Of a stretch of DNA of 39,467 nucleotides, positions 10,601 to 36,748 are shown one piece after another. How positions within the stretch are numbered: position 1 is the stretch's first letter; each line of letters starts with the position of its first letter. Both the position numbers and the translations under genes were made by a program. The stretch comes from a virus: UHGV virus genome UHGV-0285531; one strand, given 5' to 3'. The notes below the pieces were generated by a model. It ran no database searches. It had not been told where the DNA came from and saw nothing but the letters and a program-made list of their open reading frames with translations.

Positions 10601-10885
10601 CTGATGGATGAAAACAGTACGAATTGTCGTTATGCTGTTCTGTGCTATGACAAGTATCCACGGATGACCGATACGGTATTTTCGCACAATGAAATCGTTG
10701 AACACACTGACGAGGAGGGTAATGTCACTACTACGGAAGAACCTGTATACACCGAGGTGGTTATTCACGAAGAGGGTGAGGAGTGGGGTGTTCGGCCTGA
10801 CGGAATTTTCTTTGCTGAAGCCGCTTATCAGAGAAGAAAACTGGAAAGAATCGAAGCCAGACTTTCTGCTCTTGAACAGAAGTAA
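7691..10885 (+). CDS. 17: tail fibre / tailspike with endo-N-acetylneuraminidase (endosialidase, K1 capsule depolymerase) and C-terminal intramolecular chaperone domain
   Basis: 1064 aa; N-terminal ~150 aa is T7 gp17-like adaptor ([25 protein letters not shown]...); remainder matches, by recollection, the phage K1F endosialidase including the C-terminal auto-cleaved chaperone segment; ATG 7691 after AGGAGG. Confidence 0.88.
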   Translation: [1064 protein letters not shown]

Positions 10886-13876: not shown

Positions 13877-13899
13877 ACTTAACTATCACTATAGGGAAG
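13877..13899 (+). promoter_or_regulatory. phage RNAP promoter (phiOR-like), +1 G at 13894
   Basis: ggacttaactatcactatagggaagac, downstream of terminase, upstream of gp19.5-like ORF and genome right end. Confidence 0.75.
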
Positions 13900-14474: not shown

Positions 14475-14670
14475 TCTCACAGTTCAAGAACCTCAAGTCT
14501 CCCCCATAGGCCCTCTTTAAGTCCAGACCAAAGGCCCTACCCCAGTCTGTCATAAGGTTGGACCGATGGTCAAGACTTCAGGTCAACGATAGGTATAGGC
14601 TATGGCTTAGGGAAGGACGATAGGTAGGGGCTATAGGTCTGTCTCTGAGTCTCTATCTGTATAGTGTTAT
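14475..14670. repeat. genome terminus and direct terminal repeat (single collapsed copy); extent approximate
   Basis: tctcacagttcaagaacctcaagtctcccccatagg resembles the T7 left end as I recall it (TCTCACAGTGTACGG...CCCCCATAGG); noncoding; flanked on both sides by heptamer repeat arrays. Confidence 0.45.
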
Positions 14671-14757: not shown

Positions 14758-14869
14758 TTAATAGACACAAAGGCTATAGACTTAAGGTCTAAGACATGTT
14801 AGTCAAAGACTATATCCTCTTACACCATGGGGCCGACGATAGCTTAATCAATATTATTTAAATAACCTA

Positions 14870-14898
14870 TTGACTATAGGTCCAGACTATGGCCTAAT
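14870..14898 (+). promoter_or_regulatory. candidate host sigma70 early promoter (A1-like)
   Basis: TTGACT at 14870-14875 preceded by AT-rich UP-like tract; 17-bp spacer then CCTAAT (poor -10); arrangement resembles T7 A1. Confidence 0.4.
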
Positions 14899-15009
14899 AG
14901 CTTCCGTCAACACGACACGGCAACAACCGGATAGTGAAGACGCCGGTCCGGTCCGGTTAAGTAGTCAGCCTGTAAGACATACGAACAACAGGCAACCGAC
15001 AGAAAGTAG

Positions 15010-15039
15010 TTGACAAGATGTAACGATAAGATGTAAGAT
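15010..15039 (+). promoter_or_regulatory. host sigma70 early promoter (A2/A3-like)
   Basis: TTGACA (15010-15015), 18-bp spacer, TAAGAT (15034-15039), followed by GTACCACAT as in T7 A3 by recollection. Confidence 0.55.
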
Positions 15040-15163: not shown

Positions 15164-15210
15164 AGGGCCTTTGAGTCTACATCTGAAGGCCCTGACTGAT
15201 AGTCACTAAC
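15164..15210 (+). promoter_or_regulatory. hairpin plus GACTGATAGTCACTAAC box, putative RNase III site (R0.3-like)
   Basis: AGGGCCTT-N14-AAGGCCCT perfect 8-bp inverted repeat followed by gactgatagtcactaac; related copies at 15487 and 16048. Confidence 0.5.
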
Positions 15211-15226
15211 TTAAAGGATGGACACT

Positions 15227-15472
15227 ATGAAACACTTAAGCACAATCACTAATCACAATGAAGTATTCGTGAACACTAAAGGTTATGCGTGGATTCAGCT
15301 TAAAGAGATGACAGGAGCGCGTCACCGTGTGGTAGTGCGCAAGGTCTCAAGCAAGCCGTTCAGCAACTACAGCGTAGATACTGTGCGTATAGACAACGAG
15401 ACCTACCTGATAGACTCGCAGATAACCGTGAGTCCTACAGCGGGCGTCTCAGCTCCTTATTTCGCTAACTGA
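15227..15472 (+). CDS. hypothetical early protein, first gene of the early operon (upstream of ocr)
   Basis: Track ORF 15218-15472; preferred start ATG 15227 (AAGGA 8 nt upstream); 81 aa; no homologue recognised. Confidence 0.55.
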   Translation: MKHLSTITNHNEVFVNTKGYAWIQLKEMTGARHRVVVRKVSSKPFSNYSVDTVRIDNETYLIDSQITVSPTAGVSAPYFAN

Positions 15473-15486
15473 GAGTGATTAACTAC

Positions 15487-15527
15487 AGGTCGTTAGACTC
15501 ATAGCGGCCTGACTGATAGTCACTAAC
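15487..15527 (+). promoter_or_regulatory. hairpin plus GACTGATAGTCACTAAC box, putative RNase III site
   Basis: AGGUCG-N12-CGGCCU stem then gactgatagtcactaac; near-duplicate of element at 15164. Confidence 0.5.
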
Positions 15528-16195: not shown

Positions 16196-16389
16196 TATCT
16201 GCATTATTGATAGCCATAGGCTATGGACTTATCGCCTACGTGCTGGTGAGAGACATCAACAAAGCTCGTAAAGTCTATAAATTCAACTATGTACGTCTGG
16301 GCCGCTGGACTGTACGTCAACCTAACGGACGATTTATGCGCAACTTAGCGAACGTCTGGGATATAGCAACTATTGGGAGCAAACTGTAA
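16192..16389 (+). CDS. hypothetical early membrane protein (65 aa)
   Basis: N-terminal hydrophobic helix ISALLIAIGYGLIAYVLV then basic region; translationally coupled to neighbours. Confidence 0.5.
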   Translation: MISALLIAIGYGLIAYVLVRDINKARKVYKFNYVRLGRWTVRQPNGRFMRNLANVWDIATIGSKL

Positions 16390-16649
16390 TGAAAACCGTA
16401 TACATTAACAAACCATCTATCCGTAGCCGTGTAGAGCAAATAGAGCGTGACGTGTTCTTACATCGCCGCATGGAGGCTGAGGGCCATAAGTACGAACTGA
16501 TGTGTCTGGCGTATGGTGGACGACCGATCACTGACGATGGTAAACTTTTAGTCTCAGGCTGGAAGGCGCTAGACCATCGGTCAGCCATCAAGCACACGAC
16601 TCACGGTGACTTCAGTCATCTTCACGCTAACCCACTGATATGCAAGTAA
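16389..16649 (+). CDS. hypothetical early protein (86 aa)
   Basis: ATG overlaps upstream stop (TAATG); no homologue recognised. Confidence 0.5.
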   Translation: MKTVYINKPSIRSRVEQIERDVFLHRRMEAEGHKYELMCLAYGGRPITDDGKLLVSGWKALDHRSAIKHTTHGDFSHLHANPLICK

Positions 16650-16654
16650 TTATG

Positions 16655-16677
16655 ACTTAACTATCACTATAGGACTC
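16655..16677 (+). promoter_or_regulatory. phage RNAP promoter immediately upstream of the RNAP gene, +1 G at 16672
   Basis: gacttaactatcactataggact; full consensus core; ~74 nt upstream of the RNAP start codon. Confidence 0.7.
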
Positions 16678-16745
16678 AAGGTCTAAGACTCCAAGTGAAA
16701 GACCAAAGAGATTTAAGTGAAAGACTAATAACAAGGACTTTAAGT

Positions 16746-19427
16746 ATGAGCGTCATCTCTATTGATAAACACGACTTCTCTGATGTGTCGAACGCCATTG
16801 AGCCGTTTAACCTGCTGGCAGACCACTACGGGCAAGACCTTGCAGTCAAACAGCTTCAGCTTGAGCATGAGGCCTACACAGAAGGCGAGCGACGTTTCAT
16901 CAAGAACCTTGAGCGCCAGACCGAGCGCGGGGAACTGGCAGACAATCAGGTCGCCAAGCCTTTGATGCAGACTCTGGTGCCTAAGATTGCGCAAGCAGTC
17001 AAGGAGTGGCACGAAGGCCAAGACGGGAAGCTGTCAACCTCTCGTCCTAGCGTAGCGTTCACCACGTTGAGCACTGAAGAGAAGGCCGTCAAGGACCGCT
17101 CTATGCGCATCTCCTGTGAGTCCGCTGCGGTTATCATACTGAAGGTCATACTCTCCAAGCTGGTCAAGCCTGAAGGGGTACCGATTACACCTATGGCCTC
17201 AGCGTTAGGTCGCACACTTGAGGACGAAATCCGCTTCGGTCGCATCCGTGACAAGGAGAAGGAGCACTTCAAGAAGGCGATAGCTGAGAACCTGAACAAG
17301 CGAGCTGGGGCATCCTACAAGAAAGCCTACATGCAAGCTGTAGAGGCATCCATGCTGGAGCAAGGCCAACTGGAAGATGCGTGGGGGACTTGGAGTCCGA
17401 CCGAAGCGGTGCACGTTGGCATCAAGATGCTCGAGATTGTCATCCAGTCCACACAACTGGTCGAGCTTAAGCGTTATGGTGCTGGCAATGCGGCGGCTGA
17501 CGTTGAGATGGTCCACCTGTCAGACTTCTGGGTAAAGAAGATGGCACAACGTGGATTCAGCCTTGCGGGTATTGCGCCAGTCTATCAGCCTTGCGTCGTT
17601 CCACCTAAACCGTGGACTGGTGTAGTAGGCGGTGGGTACTGGGCCAAAGGTCGCAGACCGTTACCATTGATTCGCTTAGGGTCTAAGTCTGCGGTAGCAC
17701 GTTATGAAGACGTGTACATGCCTGAAGTCTATGACGCTGTGAACATCATTCAAAATACACCTTGGAAAGTGAACAAGAAGGTATTGAACGTGGTGAACAT
17801 GGTCGAGAAGCTGAACAACACGCCTATTGATGACATCCCTCAGATGGAACCGCTGAAGCCTGAGGACTATGCTGGTGAGACCGAGGAGGAACTCAAGGCA
17901 TGGAAGAAGGCTGCTGCTGGTATCTATCGCCGCGAGAAGGCCCGACAGTCACGCAGATTATCACTGAGCTTTATCATCAACCAAGCGAATAAGTTCTCTC
18001 AGTTCAAGGCCATCTGGTTTCCATACAACATGGACTGGCGCGGTCGAGTCTACGCTGTGCCGATGTTCAACCCTCAGGGTAACGACATGCAGAAGGGTCT
18101 CCTGACTCTGGCAGTCGGTAAGCCTATTGGTGCTGACGGTTTCAAATGGCTGAAGGTCCATGGTGCAAACTGCGCGGGTGTTGATAAAGTCACCTTCGAG
18201 GAGCGCATCAAGTGGGTGGAAGACAACCACGAAAACATCATGGCTGCTGCTAAGGCACCGATGGATAGTATTGAGTGGTGGGGCAAGTTAGACTCTCCGT
18301 TCTGCTTCCTTGCGTTCTGCTTCGAGTATGCTGGCGTAATGCACCACGGCCTGTCTTACTCCTGCTCGCTGCCGATAGCGTTCGATGGGTCCTGCTCTGG
18401 TATTCAGCACTTCAGTGCGATGCTTCGTGACCACATCGGTGGCCATGCAGTAAACCTGACGCCATCCGGCATGGTACAAGACATCTACCGCATTGTGTCT
18501 GACCGCATTGAGGAGGAGCTTAAAGTCCTGCTGATTAACGGTACTGACAACGAGATGGTCACTCACGAGGATAAGAAAACTGGTGAGATTACCGAACGTA
18601 TCAAGCTGGGGACACGAGAGCTGGCCCGTCAGTGGCTGACATACGGTATGTCACGCAAGGTCACTAAGCGTTCAGTCATGACTCTGGCATACGGGTCGAA
18701 AGAGTACGGCTTCGCAGACCAAGTTTACGAGGACATCGTGATGCCAGCGATTGACTCAGGGTCTGGCGCTATGTTCACAGAGCCAAGCCAAGCGTCCCGC
18801 TTCATGGCTAAGATGATTTGGGAAGCTGTGAGCGTGACCGTAGTTGCTGCGGTTGACGCGATGAAGTGGCTTCAAGGTGCTGCCAAGCTGCTGGCTGCTG
18901 AAGTGAAGGACAAGAAGACTGGAGAAATCCTGAAGCCTTGCCTTCCGGTACACTGGGTAACACCTGATGGTTTCCCGGTCTGGCAGGAATACCGCAAGAA
19001 GGATACCACTCGTCTGAACCTGATGTTCTTAGGGTCATTCAACCTTCAACCTACGGTCAACAAAGGTATGAAGAAAGAGCTGGACAAGCACAAGCAGGAG
19101 TCAGGCATTAGCCCGAACTTCGTCCACTCACAAGATGGTAGCCACCTACGCAAGACTGTAGTCCACACGCATCGCAAGTATGGCGTGATGTCATTCGCAG
19201 TGATTCACGATAGCTTCGGGACCATCCCGGCTGACGCTGAGTATCTGTTCCGTGGTGTCCGTGAGACGATGGTCGAGACCTACCGCGACAACGATGTGCT
19301 GCTTGACTTCTACGAGCAGTTTGAATACCAGCTTCATGAGAGCCAGCGCGACAAGTTGCCTGAGCTTCCGAAGAAAGGTAAACTGAATATCGAGGACATC
19401 TTGTCTTCAGACTTTGCATTCGCTTAA
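16746..19427 (+). CDS. 1: single-subunit DNA-dependent RNA polymerase (T7 gp1-like)
   Basis: Track ORF 16695 (GTG) to 19427; preferred ATG 16746 (MSVISIDKHDFSD..., AAGGA upstream) giving 893 aa; extensive recollected identity to T7 RNAP incl. WFPYNMDWRGRVYAV, AFDGSCSGIQHFSAMLRD, NFVHSQDGSHLRKTV, IHDSFGT, C-terminal FAFA. Confidence 0.97.
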   Translation: MSVISIDKHDFSDVSNAIEPFNLLADHYGQDLAVKQLQLEHEAYTEGERRFIKNLERQTERGELADNQVAKPLMQTLVPKIAQAVKEWHEGQDGKLSTSRPSVAFTTLSTEEKAVKDRSMRISCESAAVIILKVILSKLVKPEGVPITPMASALGRTLEDEIRFGRIRDKEKEHFKKAIAENLNKRAGASYKKAYMQAVEASMLEQGQLEDAWGTWSPTEAVHVGIKMLEIVIQSTQLVELKRYGAGNAAADVEMVHLSDFWVKKMAQRGFSLAGIAPVYQPCVVPPKPWTGVVGGGYWAKGRRPLPLIRLGSKSAVARYEDVYMPEVYDAVNIIQNTPWKVNKKVLNVVNMVEKLNNTPIDDIPQMEPLKPEDYAGETEEELKAWKKAAAGIYRREKARQSRRLSLSFIINQANKFSQFKAIWFPYNMDWRGRVYAVPMFNPQGNDMQKGLLTLAVGKPIGADGFKWLKVHGANCAGVDKVTFEERIKWVEDNHENIMAAAKAPMDSIEWWGKLDSPFCFLAFCFEYAGVMHHGLSYSCSLPIAFDGSCSGIQHFSAMLRDHIGGHAVNLTPSGMVQDIYRIVSDRIEEELKVLLINGTDNEMVTHEDKKTGEITERIKLGTRELARQWLTYGMSRKVTKRSVMTLAYGSKEYGFADQVYEDIVMPAIDSGSGAMFTEPSQASRFMAKMIWEAVSVTVVAAVDAMKWLQGAAKLLAAEVKDKKTGEILKPCLPVHWVTPDGFPVWQEYRKKDTTRLNLMFLGSFNLQPTVNKGMKKELDKHKQESGISPNFVHSQDGSHLRKTVVHTHRKYGVMSFAVIHDSFGTIPADAEYLFRGVRETMVETYRDNDVLLDFYEQFEYQLHESQRDKLPELPKKGKLNIEDILSSDFAFA

Positions 19428-19732: not shown

Positions 19733-19755
19733 CCTAAACTATCACTATAGGATTA
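19733..19755 (+). promoter_or_regulatory. phage RNAP promoter (phi1.1-like), +1 G at 19750
   Basis: ccctaaactatcactataggatt. Confidence 0.75.
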
Positions 19756-21719: not shown

Positions 21720-21725
21720 CGTCAA

Positions 21726-21757
21726 CCCAGTGGTCTTCGGACTGCTGGGTTTATTTG
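21726..21757 (+). terminator. intrinsic terminator (TE-like early terminator)
   Basis: CCCAGUGGUC-UUCG-GACUGCUGGG 10-bp stem with UUCG tetraloop followed by UUUAUUUG; after ligase/HNH, before next phage promoter. Confidence 0.7.
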
Positions 21758-21778: not shown

Positions 21779-21801
21779 CCTAAGCTATCACTATAGGACA
21801 A
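21779..21801 (+). promoter_or_regulatory. phage RNAP promoter (phi1.5/1.6-like), +1 G at 21796
   Basis: ccctaagctatcactataggaca (one substitution upstream of core). Confidence 0.7.
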
Positions 21802-25122: not shown

Positions 25123-25338
25123 ATGATTAAACTTATTGAATTTCTTGGTCGTCTGGTGGTGCGTGGTTATCGTCGTGCTGCGGTACTGGAACGAAAGGTA
25201 GAAAAGAAGACTGCTGACAGTGCGGCTGATGCTGCTGCTCTGGCTGACAAGCTGACAATAGCGTCACTGGAAGCTGGCATGAAGGCACGTCAAGCTGACA
25301 CCAAAGCTGACCAGTTGGCTCAGTTCTTCAAAGCCTAA
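25123..25338 (+). CDS. hypothetical protein (71 aa)
   Basis: Track ORF 25069-25338; preferred ATG 25123 (AAAGGAG upstream, downstream of lysozyme stop); Ala/Lys-rich, likely helical. Confidence 0.45.
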   Translation: MIKLIEFLGRLVVRGYRRAAVLERKVEKKTADSAADAAALADKLTIASLEAGMKARQADTKADQLAQFFKA

Positions 25339-25356
25339 ACTATCACCTTAGGGATG
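25334..25356 (+). promoter_or_regulatory. phage RNAP promoter variant (phi4-like), +1 G at 25351
   Basis: cctaaactatcacCTtagggatg: two substitutions at -4/-3; transcript begins with a GGGAC...GUCCC hairpin. Confidence 0.5.
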
Positions 25357-36704: not shown

Positions 36705-36710
36705 TTGAAA

Positions 36711-36748
36711 CCCCTTGGGTACCTTCGGGTGCTTGAGGGGTTTTTTTT
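36711..36748 (+). terminator. Tphi-like transcription terminator
   Basis: CCCCUUGGGUACC-UUCG-GGUGCUUGAGGGG followed by U8; closely resembles the T7 Tphi sequence as I recall it. Confidence 0.85.

Follow-up and report, generated by a model that had tools for sequence, protein, structure and literature searches.

A predicted promoter for the phage RNA polymerase directly upstream of the polymerase gene in a K1F-like virus genome

The virus genome analyzed here (UHGV-0285531; the window, that is, the whole stretch of 39,467 nucleotides) is permuted and K1F-like (Kayfunavirus), and directly ahead of gene 1, which encodes the single-subunit RNA polymerase (RNAP), it carries a site whose sequence supports its identification as a genuine cognate phage-RNAP promoter, conserved in position and co-evolving with the specificity of the polymerase. 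We consider it likely that the RNAP of the phage uses this site as a functional, class II-like promoter within a host-transcribed early operon and in this way amplifies its own mRNA. A promoter ahead of gene 1 is already known, and such layouts are frequent in phages other than T7, T3, and K11. All promoters, genes, and other expression signals described below for this genome lie on the plus strand.

The promoter, its leader, and gene 1

The promoter spans positions 16655-16677 (-17 to +6) and reads ACTTAACTATCACTATA followed by GGACTC, with the G at 16672 as predicted +1. It is intergenic, located between a stop codon (16647-16649) and the ATG of gene 1 (16746-16748), is oriented like the gene, and shows TATA followed by GG at +1/+2. 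The preliminary description, which had placed a phage promoter with this start site about 74 nt before the RNAP start codon and in the same orientation, is thus borne out by the sequence and by its matrix score. The genome contains ten strong promoter copies, all on the same strand, and this site is among them. A search with an 18-mer allowing up to 3 mismatches yielded 11 matches, all on the plus strand, compared to 0.04 expected by chance. Leave-one-out scoring with a weight matrix gives 32.4-39.1 bits for the ten strong sites and 24.1 bits for the next-best site, against a genome background of -51 ± 12. With 32.4 bits, the gene 1 promoter has the lowest score among the ten. Its segment from -13 to +2 corresponds to the invariant core of the promoter family, and to this extent the initial characterization as a full-consensus promoter holds; it was slightly generous with respect to the T at -14, a minority variant present in just 2 of the 9 other sites, and to positions +3 to +6 (ACTC), which differ from the GGGAGA/GGAAAC type of the late promoters. 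The initially transcribed GGAC resembles the middle promoters of this genome (GGAT/GGAC) and not the late ones (GGGA/GGAA). Overall, the 23-bp element matches the genome's own repeated consensus, and its specificity bases at -12 to -7 (ACTATC) are paired with an RNAP specificity loop of the K1F type (RLNLMFLGSFNLQPTVN). The published K1F promoter consensus, (A/C)CTAAACTATCACTATAGGRAAA, is quoted in the ASO2B record.

A transcript starting at 16672 is predicted to begin with a 74-nt 5' leader (16672-16745). This leader is A-rich, with AAGAC/AAGTGAAAGAC motifs occurring repeatedly, and shows conservation throughout the K1F clade. A Shine-Dalgarno sequence (AAGGA, 16733-16737, read from the sequence) precedes the ATG by 8 nt; of the 22 K1F-clade sequences in the alignment, 21 keep it and only that of CR8 differs. 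RNA structure, including an RNase III-type hairpin, was considered for the leader and across the promoter and was rejected, with fold z-scores (0.44 and 0.38) no better than those of shuffled sequences; furthermore, no match to Rfam families was found in the whole window. Gene 1 itself (16746-19427) encodes a protein of 893 aa with matches to Pfam families PF00940 (E = 7e-106) and PF14700, and the region is approximately 95% identical to its K1F counterpart at the nucleotide level.

Conservation and co-variation within the K1F clade

The comparison with related genomes that had been suggested at the outset speaks in favor of the promoter. All 21 metagenomic IMG/VR loci whose RNAP is at least 78% identical carry it, at -75 to -102 nt (20 detected by the automatic screen and one, L016, by alignment), K1F, EcoDS1, CR44b, and CR8 have it at the same position, and the 111-nt region is carried by 219 phage records. 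Within 17 K1F-type sequences, the 23-mer is invariant, and 22 of 100 upstream columns vary. Additional promoter calls in three loci (L004, L015, and L040), which resulted from a CACT-based screen, were excluded after they had turned out to be unrelated repeats (CTGACTGATAGTCACTAAC and others).

The site co-varies with the specificity of the polymerase. Three promoter specificities occur in the clade at -12 to -7 (ACTATC, ACCCTC, and AGGTAC), and in every case the gene 1 site agrees with the consensus of the other promoters of the same genome. The specificity loop of the RNAP shifts in parallel, from the N..N pattern of the K1F type to D..R, as in T3, for the ACCCTC type, and the loop of CR8, with its AGGTAC promoters, differs from both. 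T7 RNAP equipped with the K1F loop has been shown to drive a promoter with the K1F consensus at -12 to -7 (PMC3458549). One sub-clade exhibits an A at -2 at the gene 1 promoter only, and the strength of this promoter may therefore be low or tuned down. No Kayfunavirus promoter or transcriptome study was found in our literature search.

This pattern bears on the trivial explanation that the site is a chance match or a relic unused by the polymerase. While it is the lowest scoring of the strong sites and deviates from the consensus at +3 to +6, the small number of matches expected by chance, the conserved position in every member of the clade, and the co-variation with three polymerase specificities, which neither chance nor a relic can account for, render this explanation extremely improbable.

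Genomic context and a potential feedback loop

Besides the gene 1 promoter, the strong copies include a phiOR-type promoter (13877-13899, +1 at 13894), which precedes the terminal repeat (14475-14653) and is identical to the gene 1 promoter from -17 to +2, and a phi1.1-type promoter (19733-19755, +1 at 19750), which is the next phage promoter 3' of gene 1 and shares with it the GACTCAAGGTC motif just past the start site. The remaining seven copies span positions 346-35289, with +1 at 363, 7639, 21796, 22999, 31463, 34284, and 35284, the last being of the phi10 type. Between the phiOR-type promoter and 16655, no phage promoter is present, and a phiOL-type left-end promoter between the left end (14475) and gene 1 was found neither in this genome (no site above the reporting threshold of 0 bits used for the window) nor in the related loci (no site above the 8 bits applied there). 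The gene 1 promoter itself follows the host promoters and early genes at a distance of 2198 nt from the left end, whereas a phiOL-type promoter would lie ahead of the host early promoters, between these and the left terminal repeat.

The early region comprises only small ORFs and an ocr homologue. Its last gene before the promoter, a gp0.38 homologue (16389-16649) for which no Pfam match was obtained, ends with its stop codon 5 nt upstream of the promoter. A host-type (sigma-70) early promoter is predicted at 14870-14906, with 3 mismatches to positions 469-505 of EcoDS1, where the first of the annotated host RNAP promoters is located; a second candidate (15010-15039, TTGACA-18-TAAGAT, 10 of 12 consensus positions) matches the place of the second one annotated in EcoDS1. 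Both are consensus-level matches homologous to these annotations, and the first gene 1 transcripts presumably originate from the promoter at 14870-14906. The host-transcribed early unit containing gene 1 probably ends at a TE-like intrinsic terminator (21724-21757; read from the sequence as a 12-bp stem, TTCG loop, and T-rich tail), the position of which we take to be analogous to that of T7 TE. Between the early promoters and gene 1, no intrinsic terminator was found, nor was a sigma-70 promoter overlapping the gene 1 promoter.

This layout suggests that the promoter probably lets the polymerase boost its own synthesis. We infer feedback because neither a terminator nor significant structure is found between +1 and the ATG and because a Shine-Dalgarno sequence is present. 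E. coli RNAP would start at the left-end promoters at about 14870 and 15010 and transcribe the small early genes and gene 1 up to the TE-like terminator at about 21750, giving rise to the first polymerase molecules. These would then initiate at G16672 and produce transcripts with the unstructured 74-nt leader and its good Shine-Dalgarno sequence, followed by gene 1 and the genes beyond. Since initiation at this position reads gene 1, the gene would become both an early and a middle gene, with the polymerase amplifying its own mRNA. Moreover, because the K1F clade lacks phiOL, the gene 1 promoter would be the leftmost phage promoter and therefore the earliest site where transcription can pass from the host to the phage enzyme; by analogy with T7, transcription-driven DNA entry might also be taken over here first. 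Again by analogy with T7, the loop could be capped by the phage lysozyme (gp3.5), a polymerase inhibitor whose effect is strongest at class II-type promoters. What the analysis shows is that the site belongs to the promoter family, is conserved, and co-varies with polymerase specificity; that it is active in vivo, how large the feedback would be, and that lysozyme acts as a brake is what we infer.

However, conservation of the promoter is no proof that autoamplification is the selected function, as transcription takeover, DNA entry, or the priming of replication would conserve it equally. In T7, replication origins consist of phage promoters followed by A+T-rich DNA. The gene 1 promoter could accordingly prime DNA replication, being associated with an origin like T7 phi1.1A/B (primary) or phiOL (secondary), with gene 1 expression not being its main role. 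The A-rich leader (62% A+T over +1 to +80) and the fact that the gene 1 and phi1.1-type promoters flank gene 1 and have the same motif right after the start site would fit this. Yet this A+T content falls within the range of 0.54-0.65 that follows the other promoters, and instead of the tandem promoters downstream of gene 1 and the distinctly A+T-rich stretch of the T7 primary origin, there is a single promoter upstream of the gene. Furthermore, the leader ends in a conserved Shine-Dalgarno sequence and a start codon and is therefore that of a normal mRNA. Hence, we regard a role mainly in replication priming as improbable.

Comparison with other lineages and known systems

The contrast with T7 that had been drawn initially, namely that gene 1 is reached only by the distant phiOL among the phage promoters, was confirmed across the related groups: a promoter within 400 nt of gene 1 was found in 0 of 18 T7/T3-like and 0 of 39 K11/KP32-like loci, where phiOL is located approximately 2.5-3.3 kb upstream of gene 1, whereas the K1F clade is devoid of phiOL. 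T7, T3, and K11 manage without a gene 1 promoter. T7 phiOL and the gene 1 promoter described here have in common that each is the leftmost phage promoter, that transcription from them runs rightward through gene 1, and that the phage RNAP can thereby reach its own gene; however, phiOL is flanked by the terminal repeat and the host promoters, while the site in the window comes after all other early genes, at 2.2 kb from the left end and only 74 nt before the ATG. In other lineages, promoters with their own consensus precede gene 1 by 57-190 nt, including 8 of 8 loci of Ghunavirus (gh-1-like Pseudomonas phages) as well as ALEA, MR1, a Providencia phage, and several metagenomic lineages. In Ghunavirus and other Studiervirinae, this consensus differs from the one in the window (TAAAAACCCTCACTGTGG and others), and, unlike in the K1F clade, a left-end promoter is additionally present in several of these genomes. 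In the main texts of the papers on phi15, phiPsa17, and phiIBB-PF7A, no promoter ahead of gene 1 is discussed.

These distributions are relevant to another explanation, according to which the promoter is active and has been selected as a replacement for phiOL, providing the leftmost start for the takeover of middle genes and for genome internalization, with additional gene 1 mRNA as a minor by-product. T7 DNA entry is reportedly driven by transcription by the phage RNAP, as described by the Molineux laboratory. In line with such a replacement, no K1F-clade locus has a phage promoter between the left end and the gene 1 site, and every T7/T3- or K11-type locus has phiOL and lacks the gene 1 site, which amounts to a clean either/or within these groups. 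In addition, the sequence at 14773-14810, about 300 nt from the left end, resembles -5 to +32 of the gene 1 promoter and might be what is left of a phiOL after decay. On the other hand, left-end and gene 1 promoters are not strict alternatives, since the gh-1-like phages and the Providencia phage carry both. The phi1.1-type promoter, just 3 kb beyond, could serve the takeover as in T7, and any transcript from 16672 necessarily carries gene 1 together with its Shine-Dalgarno sequence. We therefore consider replacement of phiOL as the main selected role rather unlikely.

Self-amplification of the polymerase remains our preferred explanation, and a stronger version of it can be put forward only tentatively: the K1F/GW1/CR8 clade might have lost phiOL, with the gene 1 promoter as the sole phage promoter in the left 5 kb, making gene 1 an obligate natural autogene whose feedback, tuned by the minority T at -14, the A at -2, and the GGACTC start, would time both the early-to-middle switch and genome entry. 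If so, these phages would offer a naturally occurring model of circuits in which a single-subunit polymerase amplifies itself, and the textbook layout of T7 might be a derived state.

The preliminary description had implied that the arrangement is unusual, and this does not hold, as the promoter is annotated in relatives, the idea of feedback has been published for LUZ100, and the layout recurs in many Studiervirinae. The importance of our finding is therefore modest and adds no discovery. It does illustrate that the textbook rule derived from T7, with gene 1 as a purely host-transcribed early gene, fails across the Studiervirinae, in which many lineages place a cognate promoter directly before the polymerase gene, among them the K1F group, which finds use in phage therapy and synthetic biology. 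Those who engineer K1F-type phages, or work with the RNAP and promoter parts of K1F, would have to expect that gene 1 cassettes including the native upstream region are self-activating.

The closest precedents are annotations within the same phage group. EcoDS1 (NC_011042, 2244-2266) has an annotated promoter with the note 'phi' whose 23-mer is identical to 16655-16677, and promoters upstream of gene 1 are predicted in CR44b (HG818823, 1814-1836) and, in the same place but with its own consensus, in CR8 (HG818824, 3356-3378). All three occupy the same intergenic position, between gp0.38/0.42 and gene 1, and do not differ substantively from the site in the window, although the records provide annotation only; in neither K1F GenBank record are promoters annotated.

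A further precedent is Pseudomonas phage LUZ100, where phi1 is located directly upstream of the RNAP gene and its start site has been mapped experimentally, and where host read-through has been proposed to prime a positive-feedback loop in which the polymerase amplifies its own transcription (PMC10134795). The window shares this architecture, in that a phage-specific promoter precedes the phage RNAP gene by 74 nt, the interval contains no terminator-like site, and the leader is unstructured, although the +1 at 16672 is predicted from sequence. It should be noted that LUZ100 is a distant, temperate-like relative in which phi1 adjoins an integrase/MarR cassette and repression by MarR has been proposed (PMC10134795), whereas neither integrase nor MarR was found in the early region of the window or in either K1F annotation.

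The same topology characterizes the engineered T7 autogene. In this construct, reportedly built by Dubendorff and Studier in 1991, T7 gene 1 is placed behind its cognate T7 promoter, with trace polymerase priming the loop and lysozyme restraining it. While the T7 autogene is a synthetic plasmid, the arrangement described here is natural and is embedded in a host-transcribed operon during lytic infection.

The promoter ahead of the polymerase gene

The window is the genome of a K1F-like podovirus (Kayfunavirus, Studiervirinae) in circularly permuted form, with many K1F-group phages being 93-98% identical to its 15-20 kb stretch (K1F itself approximately 95%). Aligning the K1F ends to the window placed the natural left end at approximately 14475, in mid-window, together with the 179-bp terminal repeat, collapsed into one copy (14475-14653). 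The + strand carries every large ORF, including that of the single-subunit RNA polymerase (RNAP; gene 1, 16746-19427, +; Pfam PF00940, E=7e-106, and PF14700). A mechanical ORF call starts gene 1 earlier, at an in-frame GTG at 16695 (910 aa; extra stretch 16695-16745); the ATG at 16746 (893 aa) is supported as the start because the Shine-Dalgarno sequence AAGGA (16733-16737, +) is conserved and the annotations of relatives agree.

The gene 1 promoter (16655-16677, +), ACTTAACTATCACTATA followed by GGACTC, has its +1 at the G at 16672, 74 nt upstream of the polymerase ATG and on the same strand, so that sequence, start site, spacing, and orientation all match the preliminary description. The window contains 11 matches to the 18-mer core at up to 3 mismatches, all on the + strand (0.04 expected). 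Scored with a weight matrix built without it, the gene 1 promoter reaches 32.4 bits and is among ten strong sites spanning 32.4-39.1 bits, the next best genome position having 24.1 bits and the background -51 +/- 12. Calling it full consensus is slightly generous, since it scores lowest among the ten, carries a minority base at -14 (T, otherwise found at the 363 and 13894 sites), and reads ACTC at +3 to +6. Its GGAC start places it with the middle-gene promoters of the window (GGAT/GGAC) and not with the late ones (GGGA/GGAA).

A weaker promoter-like site, CCTAAACTATCACCTTA followed by GGGATG (25334-25356, +1 at 25351; 24 bits), precedes the primase/helicase gene; K1F has it too, at 10883, and it probably acts as a weak middle promoter. 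Furthermore, the 11-mer GACTCAAGGTC has 14 sites in the window at up to 1 mismatch (1.0 expected), including 16673, 19756, 19769, 11478, 27519, and 32981 (- strand), and directly follows the start sites of two promoters, that of gene 1 and the phi1.1-type one.

Conservation and co-variation with polymerase specificity

For 80 IMG/VR loci encoding polymerase relatives, each genome's own repeated promoter was located. All 21 usable loci with an RNAP identity of at least 78% keep an own-type promoter 75-102 nt upstream of gene 1 (20 found by automatic screen, L016 by an alignment showing the exact site), and K1F, EcoDS1, CR44b, and CR8 likewise carry one. In contrast, no promoter was found within 400 nt of gene 1 in T7/T3-like (0/18) or K11/KP32-like loci (0/39), which instead have a phiOL-type promoter approximately 2.5-3.3 kb upstream; the contrast with T7 drawn from the sequence alone therefore holds. 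The 111-nt region is present in 219 records of the phage collection. Among 17 K1F-type sequences, a comparison biased by the choice of set though leaving out no locus of that identity class, the 23-mer is invariant, compared to 22 variable columns out of 100 upstream, which supports a promoter function.

Three promoter specificities occur within the clade, and in each, the site at gene 1 has the version of the phage genome it lies in. Positions -12 to -7 read ACTATC in the K1F type, ACCCTC in the L017/L043 lineage (88% RNAP identity; closest to phage Ro103C3lw, Shigella phage SFP21B, and Cronobacter phage GW1), and AGGTAC in Citrobacter phage CR8. The RNAP specificity loop shifts along with the promoter type, from RLNLMFLGSFNLQ in the K1F type to RLDLMFLGTFRLQ in the lineage with ACCCTC, where loop residues and promoter bases are both T3-like, with the CR8 loop differing from both. 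Experimentally, a T7 polymerase with the K1F loop activates a promoter bearing the K1F -12 to -7 consensus (PMC3458549). This co-variation is the strongest argument that the site is a cognate, functional phage promoter, which we consider strongly supported. A relic or chance match is very unlikely, as it would not change in step with the polymerase.

Five loci with 92-94% RNAP identity (L011, L012, L013, L019, and L020) have an A at -2 of the gene 1 promoter (CACTAAAGG), located -81 nt from gene 1. This variant is confined to that promoter, their others reading TATAGG or TGTAGG, and may represent a tuned-down autoregulatory promoter.

Transcription of gene 1

Two host-type promoters (14870-14906 and 15010-15039), homologous to 'host RNAP promoter' annotations of EcoDS1, precede the small early genes, the last of which is a gp0.38 homologue (16389-16649). 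No intrinsic terminator was found between these promoters and gene 1; a TE-like terminator (21724-21757) lies between the ligase/HNH-like ORF region and the promoter at 21796, directly ahead of the latter, and a strong Tphi-like one (36707-36744; 17-bp stem, T8 tail) follows the capsid gene. The 74-nt leader has no significant secondary structure (z = 0.44; larger stretch, z = 0.38) and no Rfam match. Host-type promoters, an uninterrupted path to gene 1, and an unstructured leader together point to host-primed self-transcription as the most likely mechanism: the first gene 1 mRNA would be made by the host RNAP as part of the early operon, new polymerase would initiate at 16672 and transcribe its own gene and those beyond, and the phage lysozyme, by analogy with T7, would limit the loop. 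Positive feedback of the polymerase on its own synthesis, as initially suggested, would follow from this layout and is a reasonable interpretation, supported in part through the evidence for promoter function.

No other phage promoter lies between the left end and gene 1, either in the window or in any K1F-type locus, which also makes the gene 1 promoter the first point at which transcription and, judging from T7, DNA entry can pass to the phage enzyme. A role in priming replication is weakly argued against by an undistinctive A+T content after the promoter (0.62) and a leader resembling an ordinary mRNA leader. Sequence data cannot separate self-amplification from take-over or from replication priming.

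The best genome-wide match to the -5 to +32 part of the gene 1 promoter (14773-14810; score 44 versus 14.8 +/- 3.7; CTATA-GACTTAAGGTCTAAGAC...AGTCAAAGAC versus CTATAGGACTCAAGGTCTAAGAC...AGTGAAAGAC) lies approximately 300 nt from the natural left end, the place of phiOL in T7. It lacks the -17 to -6 recognition part and may have arisen by decay of a phiOL or by duplication of the leader. A 19-nt sequence, CTGACTGATAGTCACTAAC, is repeated exactly at 15192-15210 and 15509-15527, just upstream of early ORFs (15218 and 15556), with a degenerate copy at 15465 and three copies in locus L004; it could serve in the processing or regulation of early mRNA.

Comparison with known systems

The EcoDS1 record annotates a 'promoter, note phi' directly upstream of gene 1 (2244-2266), with a 23-mer identical to that of the window, and in the GenBank records of CR44b and CR8 a predicted promoter is marked at this position; both K1F GenBank records are devoid of promoter annotation. 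In the distantly related Pseudomonas phage LUZ100, a phage-specific promoter directly upstream of the RNAP gene (phi1) was mapped by ONT-cappable-seq, and the same positive-feedback loop was proposed, coupled to a MarR/integrase cassette (PMC10134795). This cassette is missing from the window phage.

A generic screen for any 18-mer upstream of gene 1 recurring elsewhere on the same strand did not find the arrangement in ICP3, Erwinia L1, SP6-like VEc3, T7, T3, K11, or KP32. It was found in gh-1-like Pseudomonas phages (ALEA, MR1, and 8/8 metagenomic loci), a Providencia phage, a Ralstonia phage, and several further lineages (L105, L107, L126, L127, and L130). Furthermore, the T3-type locus L041 has T3-type promoters in its early region (CAATCACCCTCACTAAAGGGAAT and AATTAACCCTCACTAAAGGGAGA, -617 and -1569 nt from gene 1); therefore, in some T3-like phages, the phage polymerase could likewise reach gene 1 from a start site nearer than phiOL. 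The difference from T7 is genuine, yet a promoter before gene 1 is common in the family. The arrangement is nothing new: the window phage adds one more member to a group with existing annotations of this promoter, and the mechanism has already been put forward elsewhere.
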